From IMG/VR virus record IMGVR_UViG_3300031994_000655, positions 1 through 17,880 of that record: a DNA stretch of 17,880 nt; one strand, 5' to 3'. This document shows, one piece after another, positions 13,939 through 17,880 of the stretch. The notes beneath the pieces were generated by a model. The model saw only the letters and a list, made by a program, of their open reading frames with translations. It was not told the origin of the DNA and searched no databases. This DNA is from a virus. The position numbers and the translations under genes are program-made. Every line of letters begins with the position of its first letter. Position 1 is the stretch's first letter.

Positions 13939-13950
13939 GTCTATCGGTGT

Positions 13951-13985
13951 TCTACCTATAAATAGTATCAAAGTTGAAAAAGTGA
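13951..13985 (-). promoter_or_regulatory. conserved promoter-like motif, copy A
   Basis: The minus-sense sequence is TCACTTTTTCAACTTTGATACTATTTATAGGTAGA, 29/35 identical to copy B. It sits in the 45-nt gap between two minus-strand genes. Confidence 0.55.
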
Positions 13986-13991
13986 TTGGTA

Positions 13992-14832: not shown

Positions 14833-16566
14833 CTATTTGGAACGTAGTTGATTGAGTATCTCATAAGCCTTAGTCTTCTTACAACCAAGAATGTTCATAA
14901 CGGTTTTAGCACTCATGTCAGGAGTTATGGAATTCATAAGTTCCTCTTCACGTTTCTTTGATTCATCAATATACCCAAGCCTAACCAAGGATTTATAAAC
15001 GGTTGTTCTGGCTGGTACACCACAAGGTTTGCCGTAGAACGTAGTGAACTTTACACCATTCAAATAGTACTCCTGGAGTTTTTTATGTACATTGTCAACC
15101 GTTACTTCCTTTCCCTCAGATAAGAGTTCCTCTGCTGCGGCTGACACGTAGTCGTTAGAGTTTGACTTCTGCAATCTCTTGTACTCAACCCTCTTGTCTC
15201 CTTCAACTGAGTTGTTTATGTACACCTCTTTTGACTTGAAGTGTTCCTTCATGTAGGCTATCATGTCATCCATTTCGATACTCATGGTCCAATAGGTCTT
15301 CTCTAGCAACGCCGTTCTGGTTATAGCACCGTCGGAATTGTCAATCATGTTTATGCTGCACCAAATGAGAGTGAGTAACACATCATCCGCGCAGTGAGTA
15401 GGAGAGTTATACCTGGCCTTTGTTGCGATAGTAGGCAATACCTTAACCCTGCGCTTGTCTCCATCCGAGTAAGGGACGTACTTGCCTCCCTTGGCTATCT
15501 TGGACTTGATTCTCGAATCAAACCCATCCTGCGTACAGGTGAACGTCGAACCAGTATCCTGAACAGGTGCAAGGCACGGCTTCCATCCAAGCATCTGGAA
15601 ATGGCGTAAAACTTCACTGTCATCAGCCGTCTCAGACAACTCTCTCTGTAACTCAGGAGAGAACATACCTGTAAAATCCTTTCCTTGGCCGTTTCCTTGC
15701 GTTCTGGCGGGCTTTCGGTTCACACATGGGTAATCCTTCCTCCACTGTTCCAAATCAGCCTCAGAGACGTCGTAAAAAGCATCGAACGACATAACCTCGA
15801 CAATAGGCAGTCTGGAAGTGGCTGTAGTTCCGAAGCATCCATCGAACATCTCAAGCCATCCAGATACATCCTCATCCTTGTAGATGTTCTCTTTAATCCA
15901 TTTGATGCCGCCCTTCTTGTCGTCACCCAGGTGTAACTTGTTCTCTTCTGGATCCATGTATGCGTAGTACTGAATCGTACGTCCAGCGGGAACTCCGTTG
16001 CCGTGCATCATCTGGTTCTTATGCTTGCTACAGTGGTCGAGTTCCACCCCGATAACCTTCTCTACCTTGTCAGCCAGGTACTCTGCGAATGCGCAGCAGT
16101 TCTCAACTCCTTTGATAACCTCCCTGGTCACATATACAAGGCGGTAGCGACAGATAGGCGTTGTAACCGTCTCTCCGTCTTTCTCCTCCGCAAGCAGGTA
16201 CGTCATGTGGCTTGTGGTGGTGTAGGCTAGTGTCGGATAAATGTCCTGGTTATCGTCGAATTCGCTTAACAGGCTGCCAAGAGTCTTGTGCTTGATATCA
16301 AAGTCGATGTCAATAAAGAAGAACTGCGTGCCAACGAAGTTATCCGTGGTACGTTCCGAACTTGTCATCTTGTTTTTCGTGTAAATTCCTGCCAATGAAC
16401 GACCCTCTTGGATGCAGCGCACCATGAATGCGAGGTTTGCGTTGCAGTACGTGGAGAAACTCATCTCCCAGTAGTCGGCAGTACCCTGAATGGGTTTGTG
16501 GTCATAGCCCTTGTCTGTTACTGATAGGCTTATGCCACTGAAGTTTGTGTCTCTGAATTGCTTCAT
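14833..16566 (-). CDS. primase-polymerase-like (AEP-type) replication protein with C-terminal HTH
   Basis: 577 aa. QFFFIDIDFD (D86/D88) resembles the AEP DxD motif I. LAYTTTSH and ELDHCSKHKNQMMHG resemble the following motifs of VirE-N/BT4734-like primases as recalled. The C-terminal SAKTVMNILGCKKTKAYEILNQL looks like a helix-turn-helix. Confidence 0.55.
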   Translation of the reverse strand: MKQFRDTNFSGISLSVTDKGYDHKPIQGTADYWEMSFSTYCNANLAFMVRCIQEGRSLAGIYTKNKMTSSERTTDNFVGTQFFFIDIDFDIKHKTLGSLLSEFDDNQDIYPTLAYTTTSHMTYLLAEEKDGETVTTPICRYRLVYVTREVIKGVENCCAFAEYLADKVEKVIGVELDHCSKHKNQMMHGNGVPAGRTIQYYAYMDPEENKLHLGDDKKGGIKWIKENIYKDEDVSGWLEMFDGCFGTTATSRLPIVEVMSFDAFYDVSEADLEQWRKDYPCVNRKPARTQGNGQGKDFTGMFSPELQRELSETADDSEVLRHFQMLGWKPCLAPVQDTGSTFTCTQDGFDSRIKSKIAKGGKYVPYSDGDKRRVKVLPTIATKARYNSPTHCADDVLLTLIWCSINMIDNSDGAITRTALLEKTYWTMSIEMDDMIAYMKEHFKSKEVYINNSVEGDKRVEYKRLQKSNSNDYVSAAAEELLSEGKEVTVDNVHKKLQEYYLNGVKFTTFYGKPCGVPARTTVYKSLVRLGYIDESKKREEELMNSITPDMSAKTVMNILGCKKTKAYEILNQLRSK

Positions 16567-16628
16567 TTGTTAATCTTGCGTTAACGTTTAGGTTTGTTAC
16601 TAACACAGTTAGCATGTGTAGAGCCGAT

Positions 16629-16775
16629 TTAGGATGGCTGGTCCTCTTTTCTCACTGAGGTGACGTAAACAATCTCTCCTCTGCGTTCTGCTTTCTTGTA
16701 GCCGTTCTGGCCAAGTGCCTGCTTTGCCAATTTACGAGTCTCATAGAAGACTCCTGTAGGTGTGTGAACTAACAT
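16629..16775 (-). CDS. hypothetical small basic protein (48 aa, below ORF-track cutoff)
   Basis: ATG at 16775 lies 16 nt after motif copy B. Hand translation gives MLVHTPTGVFYETRKLAKQALGQNGYKKAERRGEIVYVTSVRKEDQPS, ending at TAA 16629-16631. Confidence 0.5.
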   Translation of the reverse strand: MLVHTPTGVFYETRKLAKQALGQNGYKKAERRGEIVYVTSVRKEDQPS

Positions 16776-16791
16776 ATCTGTCTAGTGTGTT

Positions 16792-16826
16792 TCTACCTAT
16801 AAATAGTACGATGTTTCAAAAAGTGA
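16792..16826 (-). promoter_or_regulatory. conserved promoter-like motif, copy B
   Basis: The minus-sense sequence is TCACTTTTTGAAACATCGTACTATTTATAGGTAGA. It is identical to copy D over 31 nt. Confidence 0.6.
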
Positions 16827-16846
16827 TTCAAAGTCGTTCTCGACGG

Positions 16847-16878
16847 CAAAAGTACACATAATTTCTCAAAGAAGCAAA
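16847..16878 (-). promoter_or_regulatory. Bacteroidota-type promoter P(-): TTTG-N20-TACTTTTG
   Basis: The minus-sense sequence is TATTTGCttctttgagaaattatgtgTACTTTTGC, an exact match to the -33 TTTG and -7 TAnnTTTG consensus with a 20-nt spacer. It points toward motif B, the 48-aa ORF and the replication gene. Confidence 0.6.
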
Positions 16879-16891
16879 TAAACCGCCTCCA

Positions 16892-16926
16892 TCTACCCTA
16901 TAAATAGTACCATGTTCCAGAAAATA
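16892..16926 (-). promoter_or_regulatory. conserved promoter-like motif, copy C (degenerate 5' half)
   Basis: The minus-sense sequence is TATTTTCTGGAACATGGTACTATTTATAGGGTAGA. The core GTACTATTTATAG is intact, with one extra G. No convincing ORF follows before the P(-) promoter. Confidence 0.45.
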
Positions 16927-16959
16927 AAAACTGGACCACATCATCACGACGTTGTCCAG
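16921..16959 (-). terminator. intrinsic terminator after the 36-aa ORF
   Basis: In minus sense, CTGGAC pairs with GTCCAG (16959-16954 and 16936-16931). An inner ACGTC/GATGT helix has one G-U, with a 5-nt loop. The structure is followed by TTTTTATTTT (16930-16921). Confidence 0.6.
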
Positions 16960-16997
16960 CCAATAACTAAAATCATAAATAACATGGCCAGGTAAGG

Positions 16998-17108
16998 TCA
17001 AAGGCGCTTGCGTATGGCCTCCCTGATAGGATGGAAAATGAGATTTCCGATAGTGCTGATGGTAATGAATACGTTCAGCCAGTAGTGTTTCATAGTCTTG
17101 TTCTTCAT
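16998..17108 (-). CDS. 36-aa single-TM membrane peptide
   Basis: ATG at 17108 lies 18 nt after motif copy D. Hand translation gives MKNKTMKHYWLNVFITISTIGNLIFHPIREAIRKRL, ending at TGA 16998-17000. The hydrophobic core is flanked by basic residues, and a terminator follows 38 nt downstream. Confidence 0.5.
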   Translation of the reverse strand: MKNKTMKHYWLNVFITISTIGNLIFHPIREAIRKRL

Positions 17109-17126
17109 GGTTGTTCTTGTTTGCTT

Positions 17127-17160
17127 TCACCTATAAATAGTACGATGTTTCAAAAAGTGC
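17127..17160 (-). promoter_or_regulatory. conserved promoter-like motif, copy D
   Basis: The minus-sense sequence is GCACTTTTTGAAACATCGTACTATTTATAGGTGA. Confidence 0.6.
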
Positions 17161-17165
17161 AGCCT

Positions 17166-17217
17166 ATCGGGTATAAAACCGACCGATTTCTTGAAGATTG
17201 CCTCCAATCGGGTATAA
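17166..17217 (+). repeat. two 11-bp direct repeats ATCGGGTATAA in the divergent control region
   Basis: Copies lie at 17166-17176 and 17207-17217 (41-bp offset). A third partial copy, ATCGGGTA, is at 17283-17290. CCGACCGA recurs at 17179-17186 and 17494-17501, with CGACCGA at 17300-17306. Confidence 0.7.
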
Positions 17218-17242
17218 TATAAGTGGATCCGCCATCGGATTA

Positions 17243-17274
17243 TTTGCACAATCCAGAAAATATGTGTACTTTTG
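17243..17274 (+). promoter_or_regulatory. Bacteroidota-type promoter P(+): TTTG-N20-TACTTTTG
   Basis: The sequence is TATTTGCacaatccagaaaatatgtgTACTTTTGC. TTTG is at 17243-17246 and TACTTTTG at 17267-17274, with a 20-nt spacer. It is about 28/35 identical to the inverted P(-) element. Confidence 0.6.
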
Positions 17275-17280
17275 CATCTG

Positions 17281-17485
17281 GAATCGGGTAGCAACCTTTC
17301 GACCGAAGATTTTTCATGCCGTGACATACGTTAAAACTCCATATATCCGCTACCCGTTCCCTTACTGACATATCTGTCAACCAATATACATTGCGTCTGA
17401 CTTGTTCCCTACCATAGGATAAGGGGAAAAGTTGTTCTAGTTTCGAGAGTAACTCCGTTGAGATAACGTGGTTACTCCTTTTTTT
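17281..17485 (+). ncRNA. candidate ~205-nt structured non-coding RNA (class unknown)
   Basis: It is bounded by the P(+) promoter and an intrinsic terminator. The only + strand ATG (17315) opens a 2-codon ORF. Helices visible by eye are CGGGTAGC 17285-17292 with GCTACCCG 17349-17356, TGACA 17366-17370 with TGTCA 17375-17379, and CTTGTTCCCT 17401-17410 with AGGGGAAAAG 17422-17431 (one mismatch). The 5' end is a prediction. Confidence 0.45.
17447..17485 (+). terminator. rho-independent terminator
   Basis: GAGTAAC (17447-17453) pairs with GTTACTC (17471-17477). An inner CGTT/AACG helix surrounds loop GAGAT. The stem is followed by C and seven Ts (17479-17485). Confidence 0.7.
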
Positions 17486-17520
17486 GTACCTATCCGACCG
17501 AAATCGGTTCACACCCCCGT

Positions 17521-17554
17521 CACTTTTCCAAAGTACGTACTATTTATAGATAGA
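17521..17554 (+). promoter_or_regulatory. conserved promoter-like motif, copy E (only + oriented copy)
   Basis: The plus-sense sequence is CACTTTTCCAAAGTACGTACTATTTATAGATAGA, 28/34 identical to copy B. It faces the sigma-like gene, whose ATG is 145 nt downstream. Confidence 0.55.
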
Positions 17555-17699
17555 AGCCACTCCAAAAGCCTTCTAGTGAGAAATCCGTTCTAAGGCGCTA
17601 ATACTACCTCAGTGGTACAATTACACTGCCGAACGATTAAACACTCCCAGAACGAAGGAAACGGGGCAAGAACAAAGAAATAGACTACACTTAGATAAC

Positions 17700-17880
17700 A
17701 TGGAAACAAAGAACAACAGAGAAGAGAGGCGATTGAACCTCATCAAAGAGGCCAAGACAGGTAATGCCAACGCAGGCAACCTGCTGGTCAATGAATATAA
17801 GGACTTCATACACTGGGCGATGTGGACTACAATAAAGCCTCACATAGAATTTGTTAGGCATGTCCTTGACGAACTGGAGT
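17700..17880 (+). CDS. sigma-70/ECF-like factor, N-terminal 60 codons (3' end outside window)
   Basis: This ATG ORF is open to the window end and is absent from the track. It reads METKNNREERRLNLIKEAKTGNANAGNLLVNEYKDFIHWAMWTTIKPHIEFVRHVLDELE. The LIKEAKTGNANAGNLLVNEYKDFI segment resembles the region-2 opening (..A..GD..A...L...Y..) of ECF-type sigma factors. Confidence 0.45.
   Translation, partial: METKNNREERRLNLIKEAKTGNANAGNLLVNEYKDFIHWAMWTTIKPHIEFVRHVLDELE

Follow-up and report, generated by a model that had tools for sequence, protein, structure and literature searches.

A candidate structured noncoding RNA with its own promoter and terminator in uncultivated phages of putative Bacteroidota hosts

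The phage genome and the neighbourhood of the RNA unit

The window investigated here, that is the whole stretch of 17,880 nt from the IMG/VR record IMGVR_UViG_3300031994_000655, is part of a phage genome of ~31 kb with genes for a tape measure protein, a head protease and a portal. A protein of 577 aa encoded beside the RNA unit was identical on three metagenomic contigs (L001, L002 and L003), whose regulatory DNA was 100% identical to the window over the overlap, and L002 reaches beyond the window end. The phage is uncultivated and siphophage-like; the best terminase identity among deposited phages was 26%, and there was no cultured relative. The sequence points to a Bacteroidota host, because 21 of 29 genes are without a Shine-Dalgarno sequence, the leaders consist of 48% A and all exact host-type promoters fit the Bacteroidota consensus. 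An analysis of GC skew showed no sign of an origin.

The gene starting at 17700 encodes a sigma-70-family factor of 253 aa, in which Pfam Sigma70_r4 scored above and Sigma70_r2 just below the cutoff, and NCBIfam TIGR02937 scored 52.9 bits against a cutoff of 42.9. At 170 nt from the RNA unit described below, and on the other strand, lies an ORF of 36 aa with a hydrophobic core (16998-17108, minus strand). Relative to the most similar homologous contig, L004, this ORF displayed three synonymous changes and two conservative replacements, and judged by its sequence it is a real gene. An overlapping ORF of 100 aa (16828-17130, minus strand), called in a public contig, was rejected as not real: every changed codon was non-synonymous, and a 2-nt indel was found near its end. 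The original prediction had placed the RNA between a small membrane-peptide unit and a sigma-like gene. This holds for the window (36-aa ORF at 17108..16998 on the minus strand, sigma gene from 17700), but the position is not conserved, the peptide module being inverted in the homologous loci termed type B below.

The promoter consensus of Bacteroidota is TTTG / TAnnTTTG. Exact matches of the form TTTG-N19-21-TAnnTTTG were present in three copies in the 17.9-kb window, where 0.17 were expected and none of 200 shuffles contained three or more, and all three are confined to 16566-17274. An additional 6.7 kb read of this phage contained no further exact consensus promoter. Altogether ~24.5 kb were read, with exact host-type promoters at three places, each of them in the early region; of these, the promoter at 17243-17274 on the plus strand (P_right) alone points rightward into the RNA unit. 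P_right has a 40-nt inverted copy, 80% identical, at 16846-16885, firing leftward toward a 48-aa ORF and the 577-aa gene. This divergent host-type paralogue, P_left (16847-16878, minus strand), lies outside the RNA and is the promoter assigned to these two genes. The 577-aa gene was taken as a replication gene, and the operon next to the RNA unit was taken to encode replication functions.

The third exact promoter (16566-16596, plus strand) is antisense at the start codon of the 577-aa gene and directed into the 48-aa ORF. A weak terminator-like hairpin (16622-16639) comes after it, and the promoter is kept at 2819-2849 of the homologous contig L039. By analogy with plasmid copy control, a short RNA antisense to the 577-aa gene around its start could arise from this promoter.

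A motif of ~37 nt (CACTTTTTGAAACATCGTACTATTTATAGGT) precedes genes in a consistent orientation. Its leftward copies are located at 13947-13987, 16796-16825, 16898-16919 and 17130-17159, a rightward copy is located at 17520-17557, and another copy was found at 5146-5167 of L002. Several start codons have the motif 19-25 nt ahead of them; for the sigma gene of the window the distance is ~143 nt, and the copy at 16898-16919 is ~20 nt from P_left. The spacing of the motif corresponds neither to sigma-70 nor to the sigma-A of Bacteroidota. The motif is probably a middle or late promoter of the phage's own, possibly read by the phage sigma factor. A 12-bp palindrome, ACCGAAWTCGGT, was found at 17497-17508, at ~19369 in the extended genome (near 5187-5198 of L002) and in L027 at 1105, 1136, 1423 and 4939. 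It is located 10-25 nt upstream of rightward copies of the motif, in type B also upstream of P_right, and looks like the binding site of a dimeric regulator. Its half-sites, ATCGGGTA and GACCGA, are confined to 17166-17501.

Anatomy of the predicted transcript

The original prediction described a novel structured RNA of ~205 nt with a promoter and a terminator of its own at 17243-17485. The exact Bacteroidota promoter that it named is present as TTTG-N20-TACTTTTG at the position of P_right. A promoter-derived 18-mer, TATGTGTACTTTTGCATC, was also found directly upstream of the tmRNA gene of Palleniella intestinalis (L075 6615-7046) and of tRNA genes in a Chitinophagales genome (L072 3454-3641), and the phage promoter thus resembles host promoters of stable RNAs. 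The genome scan with this 18-mer returned Bacteroidota promoters and no homologues of the RNA. Transcription would be expected to start 6 nt past the last G of the promoter and to end in the T tract of the terminator, and promoter geometry and terminator together predict a primary transcript of ~206 nt (17280-17485, plus strand).

The canonical terminator with seven Ts was confirmed at 17447-17485. It consists of a bipartite hairpin at 17447-17477, with an outer stem (17447-54/17470-77) and an inner stem (17456-60/17464-68) of together -13.6 kcal/mol, and seven U at 17479-17485. A simple terminator scan missed it because the bipartite stem exceeds the loop limit of the scan. The U tract follows the hairpin on the plus strand only. 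Between promoter and terminator the plus strand was said to hold no usable ORF, and 17275-17490 indeed contained no ATG-initiated ORF of more than two codons, the best alternative frame being one of 15 codons starting with GTG.

A long-range helix of 8 bp had been claimed; the helix is real and longer than that, comprising 4 bp, a 1-nt bulge and 8 bp between 17280-17292 and 17349-17360. The 5′ strand of this helix, termed P1, reads GGAA-U-CGGGUAGC and its 3′ strand GCUACCCG-UUCC. The energy of the duplex was -21.2 kcal/mol compared with -11.0 +/- 2.8 kcal/mol in dinucleotide shuffles, and 0/500 shuffles were as good. P1 encloses an interior of 56 nt (17293-17348). Downstream of P1, at least two further hairpins had been proposed, and two were predicted. 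The first, P2 (UGACA-UAUC-UGUCA), is located at 17366-17379. The second, at 17399-17433 in the minimum-energy fold, holds the second copy of the direct repeat GTTCCCT, which is exact as reported and has only two plus-strand copies in the window (17356-17362 and 17404-17410); no role was found for the repeat. A linker predicted to be unpaired (UUCUAGUUUCGA, 17435-17446) leads to the terminator.

The fold of the whole molecule was not unusual in the window copy: z-scores were -1.97 when the terminator was included and -0.80 when it was left out, and a better score was obtained for the minus strand. The overall folding energy being unremarkable, the evidence for structure comes from the 5′ helix and the comparative data. 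The RNA had not been recognised as any known class, and the searches agreed with this: Rfam 15 gave zero matches at gathering scores in the window and three chance-level matches at E 2.8-7.1, and ARAGORN found no tRNA or tmRNA.

Homologous loci and covariation

The RNA unit was found in six further metagenomic phage contigs, making seven contigs in total, which fall into two types. Type A comprises the window and L004; type B comprises L027, L037, L038, L039 and L040. The sigma proteins of the two types are only 25% identical. The samples of origin are JGI 3300028805, ERZ27256871, SRR9006654 and SRR28378877. L004 was reached as the single close relative found by the sigma protein search, with 86% identity in the sigma protein and 94% identity over the region 16819-17880, and the type B loci were reached via terminase homologues with contig look-up and a second sigma search. 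Other routes returned no relatives of the unit. A BLAST search of the region against deposited phages gave no match, scans of IMG/VR with proteins, the repeated motif and RNA or promoter patterns gave only chance single matches, a scan of JGI metagenomes with the repeated motif gave the source contig and chance matches only, and an exact look-up of the 48-aa ORF gave no new contigs.

The terminase homologues reveal a large family of phages of 25-30 kb. The RNA unit is absent from relatives with a terminase ~70% identical. Some distant relatives have, at the same divergent junction, a gene-free and AT-rich region of 1.2-1.4 kb (L030 5200-6573 and L034 2153-3456), which starts with a consensus promoter and contains iteron-like repeats (GTTCAACGTGAGTTGAAAT and GGGTGTC..GACACTTGGGT) and a direct repeat of ~130 nt; this region may represent an origin or some other noncoding locus. 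Several relatives also share, in the same place in the genome, a DDE transposase gene of IS1595 type that has an exact Bacteroidota promoter of its own (L004 7788-8861, L027 3741-4814, L028 121-1182 and L039 5787-6860). This gene is absent from the window phage, and only its promoter is kept in L037; either the gene has been inserted recurrently, or a conserved accessory gene is in the process of disappearing.

The unit with its own promoter and its own terminator was conserved in all seven loci. P_right was 92% identical between the types, and its differences between the window and L004 were confined to the spacer. By the start-site and terminator rule, the unit was 206-216 nt long across both types and 210-216 nt in type B. 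Sequence similarity between the types was limited to five places: the promoter, an island in the 5′ domain, the P2 hairpin, the linker, and the inner stem and loop of the terminator. The interior of P1 differed between the types in the alignment except for the island UUUUNCAUGC..GACA; it is 93 nt long in type B, and no shared substructure was found inside it. P2 matched type B in 14/15 nt (CUGACAUAGUCUGUC), the hairpin being written CUGACAUA(N)UCUGUC, and the linker was conserved as UUC(C)UAGUUUC[G/A]A(G). The hairpin at 17399-17433 is specific to type A and absent from type B, which has a single GGTTCCC in another structural context. The U tract of the terminator varied from 5 to 9 U across the loci and was lengthened in L004 by an indel.

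In both types P1 starts 6 nt past the promoter with a shared geometry of 4 bp, a 1-nt bulge and at least 8 bp. The type B helix comprises 4 + 14 bp at -29.9 kcal/mol, against -11.6 +/- 2.7 kcal/mol in shuffles of which 0/500 were as good. Seven of the 12 pairs of P1 differed on both sides between types A and B, and all remained standard pairs; in the terminator stem 6/13 pairs changed on both sides with pairing kept. Altogether, 13 of the 30 pairs were replaced on both sides without loss of pairing, which amounts to one evolutionary split, as only two deep lineages are available. Over five helices, 176 of 180 sequence-pair cells were standard pairs, compared with 60-96 of 180 after sliding the 3′ partner by 1-3 nt, both counts being made on a script-built segment alignment hand-fitted to the helices, with the 3′ strands placed by complementarity. 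This alignment was used because MAFFT and RNAalifold misplace the 3′ arms between the types; its anchors were the promoter for the 5′ strands and the conserved loop and U tract for the terminator arms. The fold of the type B RNA had a z-score of -3.83 on the plus strand versus -1.64 on the minus strand, and both terminators as well as the type B extension of P1 contain G-U pairs that suit the plus strand only, since on the minus strand they would be A-C mismatches. The predicted structured unit is thereby conserved in two deeply diverged lineages, with two helices that keep their pairing.

Between the window and L004, 4 differences were found in 300 nt (17119-17418), versus ~6 per 150 nt elsewhere. 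This low divergence suggests constraint at every codon position, and could alternatively reflect recent recombination, as similarity is just as high in other blocks of the genome. In L004, the change at 17371 is at a loop position of P2, and the changes at 17421-22 are in an internal loop and a helix-end pair of the hairpin at 17399-17433. A pairing is conceivable between the P2 loop at 17371-17375 (UAUCU in type A, AGUCU in type B) and the terminator loop at 17461-17465 (AGAUA in type A, AGAUU in type B), and the two loops change together between the types. Against such a pairing, the L004 change at 17371 breaks one pair, and the terminator inner stem also explains the change in the terminator loop.

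The homologues also bear on the minus strand, where an ORF of 90 aa (17240..17512) might be a real protein gene with the RNA features as incidental. The original prediction preferred the RNA over this ORF, and named a minus-strand frame conserved with synonymous-biased substitution and no helix covariation as a finding that would speak against the RNA; the opposite was found in the homologues, where the frame is not conserved across the types and pairing is kept in two helices despite 13 double-sided changes. The frame is open over 90 codons in the window and a 76-codon version is open in L004, yet in L004 a 2-nt insertion shifts the frame in the start region, the C-terminus is truncated, and both changed codons (2/2, from three nucleotide differences) are non-synonymous. 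An 84-aa minus-strand ORF in type B had no similarity to the 90-aa ORF (E = 16), and its frame across the shared promoter was not that of the 90-aa ORF; 1-nt indels are present in L039 and L040, and in L040 the frames fuse into an ORF of 164 aa. The 90-aa ORF had no Pfam or PHROG match, was never called by the gene finders of the three source collections or contigs, and has no upstream promoter of either type, and the sole terminator faces the plus strand. A protein gene in this frame is hardly credible. On the plus strand no ORF was conserved across the types. We regard coding on both strands as excluded by these sequence comparisons, and the interval is very probably a noncoding RNA gene.

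What follows the terminator differs between the types. In the window, as the type A example, it is the 12-bp palindrome at 17497 (ACCGAAATCGGT), the ~37-nt motif at 17520-17557 and the sigma gene. Palindrome and motif recur in type B but there drive a homologue of the 36-aa peptide on the plus strand; further on come a hairpin between convergent genes, a minus-strand ORF of 69 aa with its own motif, and then the motif and the sigma gene. The divergent host-type promoter pair was common to 7/7 loci, and P_left was the only constant partner of the RNA unit. As the downstream neighbour differs, the unit is probably a stand-alone RNA gene and not a leader of the sigma gene. A cis-acting leader, riboswitch or attenuator of that gene was rejected on the same ground, the peptide gene, the hairpin and the convergent ORF lying between unit and sigma gene in type B.

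The arrangement in the window, with the rightward host-type promoter and then a strong terminator just upstream of the sigma gene, also resembles a promoter-proximal gate of the lambda pR'-tR' type. The RNA would then be mainly a by-product, and an antiterminator or a leaky terminator would let polymerase from P_right reach the sigma gene and other rightward genes. P2 and the linker, being conserved in sequence and not covarying, as expected of a site recognised by a protein, would be a nut-like or put-like site. A precedent is StxS, made from PR' (PMC7547250), and as for StxS the short product of such a gate may itself be functional. This is the main rival explanation, and it is unlikely: no downstream gene is conserved, type B interposes the peptide gene with its own motif, the hairpin and the minus-strand 69-aa ORF, the sigma gene has its own upstream motif and palindrome in both types, and no Q-like or N-like protein was recognised, many ORFs being unannotated. 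Among the seven loci, the RNA unit appears to be the sole conserved product of P_right.

The interval might instead act as DNA, as an origin or operator cluster in which P_right mainly activates the origin or the divergent promoter and the sequence of the RNA is irrelevant. Short repeats are dense here: ATCGGGTA occurs three times on the plus strand and GACCGA three times, all within 17166-17501, and ATCGG/CCGAT half-sites number six in 17000-17499 against a mean of 0.67 per 500 nt. The unit moreover adjoins the operon taken to encode replication functions, and the iteron-rich gene-free region of the distant relatives occupies the same junction. Binding sites or iterons leave unexplained, however, the compensatory changes between helix arms 56-93 nt apart and in the terminator stem, and copies of the full palindrome ACCGAAWTCGGT elsewhere in the genome accompany the promoter motif and not the RNA. 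A purely DNA-level element is therefore quite improbable. An origin or operator role of the surrounding ATCGG-type repeats is plausible and can coexist with an RNA gene.

Proposed role and relation to known RNAs

Partners of the RNA were looked for among the phage mRNAs by exact k-mer and ungapped complementarity, full-length RNAduplex being discarded as it returned meaningless long-loop duplexes. No conserved base-pairing target was found among the phage mRNAs tested. The best complementarity in the phage linked the P2 hairpin over 15 nt, one pair being G-U, to the start codon of the 48-aa ORF; it was equalled by 1/40 shuffles and is absent in L004. Complementarity to the sigma mRNA was below the shuffle mean in both types.

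An antitoxin-like function had been suggested for the RNA. Small RNAs of type I toxin-antitoxin systems may be encoded divergently from the toxin gene, as in IstR-1/tisB, OhsC/shoB and OrzO/zorO. The unit is alike in being a small RNA beside a gene for a small hydrophobic peptide, divergent in the window. The 36-aa ORF is real, has a hydrophobic core, lies 170 nt away on the opposite strand and is adjacent to the RNA in both types, and 17431-17443 of the RNA matches the start region of the ORF in 12/13 nt. This is shorter than the ~18 nt or more expected of such an antitoxin, its score of 24 is below the mean best score of shuffled RNAs (26.1) and so at chance level, and the match is not conserved, type B keeping only 4 + 4 bp around a bulge. 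The type B peptide furthermore has Arg residues within the putative membrane segment, and the inversion of the peptide module between the types means that the orientation is not conserved either. The suggestion was accordingly not borne out, and control of the adjacent peptide gene by a type I antitoxin-like RNA is very improbable.

With coding, cis-regulatory and antitoxin readings set against the evidence, the unit has the predicted anatomy of a stable regulatory RNA, with a paired 5′ end, a 3′ terminator hairpin, and a conserved loop and linker. The role may be depicted as follows: The host RNA polymerase would start at the sigma-A-type P_right immediately upon infection. The transcript would open directly with the 12-bp long-range helix, sequestering its 5′ end, would carry the sequence-conserved hairpin and the conserved unpaired linker, and would end at the strong intrinsic terminator, with neither strand translated. 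The released RNA would then act in trans as an early regulator, either by base-pairing via the conserved hairpin and linker or by binding a protein. The most likely target would be a host function or the early-to-middle switch, with a host RNA or a protein as the partner. Transcription, stability and action in trans are here inferred from the sequence. We put at roughly 0.6 the probability that the unit is, in full, a stand-alone, stable, trans-acting early noncoding RNA of ~206 nt with a partner outside the phage mRNAs tested.

A more specific version, unlikely in our judgement, is that the RNA serves early take-over or anti-defence by sequestering a protein, either as a decoy of the host sigma-A polymerase or as a mimic disarming an RNA-guided or RNA-sensing defence of the host. 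Protein sequestration would explain the host-type early promoter that serves an RNA only, the conserved stems and loops, and the missing base-pairing target in the phage. Were the decoy version true, transcription would be handed to the phage's own sigma factor.

Bacteroidota phages of gut and rumen are abundant and almost unstudied at the RNA level, and the phage family described here has hundreds of metagenomic relatives and no cultured one. That one of the few host-type promoters apparently makes only a structured RNA, beside a phage sigma factor, hints that the early programme includes a step based on RNA. The unit is compact, has clear boundaries and exists in two natural variants, and it provides a seed alignment for a new RNA family.

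Among known systems, 6S RNA, the decoy of RNA polymerase, is similar in length, and a sigma-A decoy would be sensible as the phage encodes its own sigma factor. The 5′ end of the unit, however, has its pairing partner inside the molecule instead of at the 3′ end, the fold lacks a rod with a central bubble, and no match to the 6S models was listed in the Rfam search even at E up to 10.

The lambda 6S RNA and StxS, from pR'-tR' regions, are alike in the always-available promoter, the strong terminator within ~200 nt and the discrete short RNA beside genes of later expression; StxS itself is the small RNA that results when transcription from the constitutively active PR' promoter is stopped directly behind it (PMC7547250). 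The unit differs in that no Q-type antiterminator was recognised, the downstream gene is not conserved and has its own motif, and its helices covary, a sign that the RNA itself is under selection.

The unit also resembles the trans-acting small RNAs of phages as a general class, of which early examples were mapped by cappable-seq in Pseudomonas phages (PMC10914365). The unit shares with this class the length of ~200 nt, the noncoding character, the dedicated promoter, the Rho-independent terminator, the conservation in related phages and the location in the early region. It differs in matching no Rfam sequence or structure and in its Bacteroidota host; no small RNA family of Bacteroidota phages is curated in Rfam, and the literature contained no comparable Bacteroidota phage RNA that we could find. 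The kind, a phage small RNA, is already known, and the unit is a new family of that kind, known from seven contigs.
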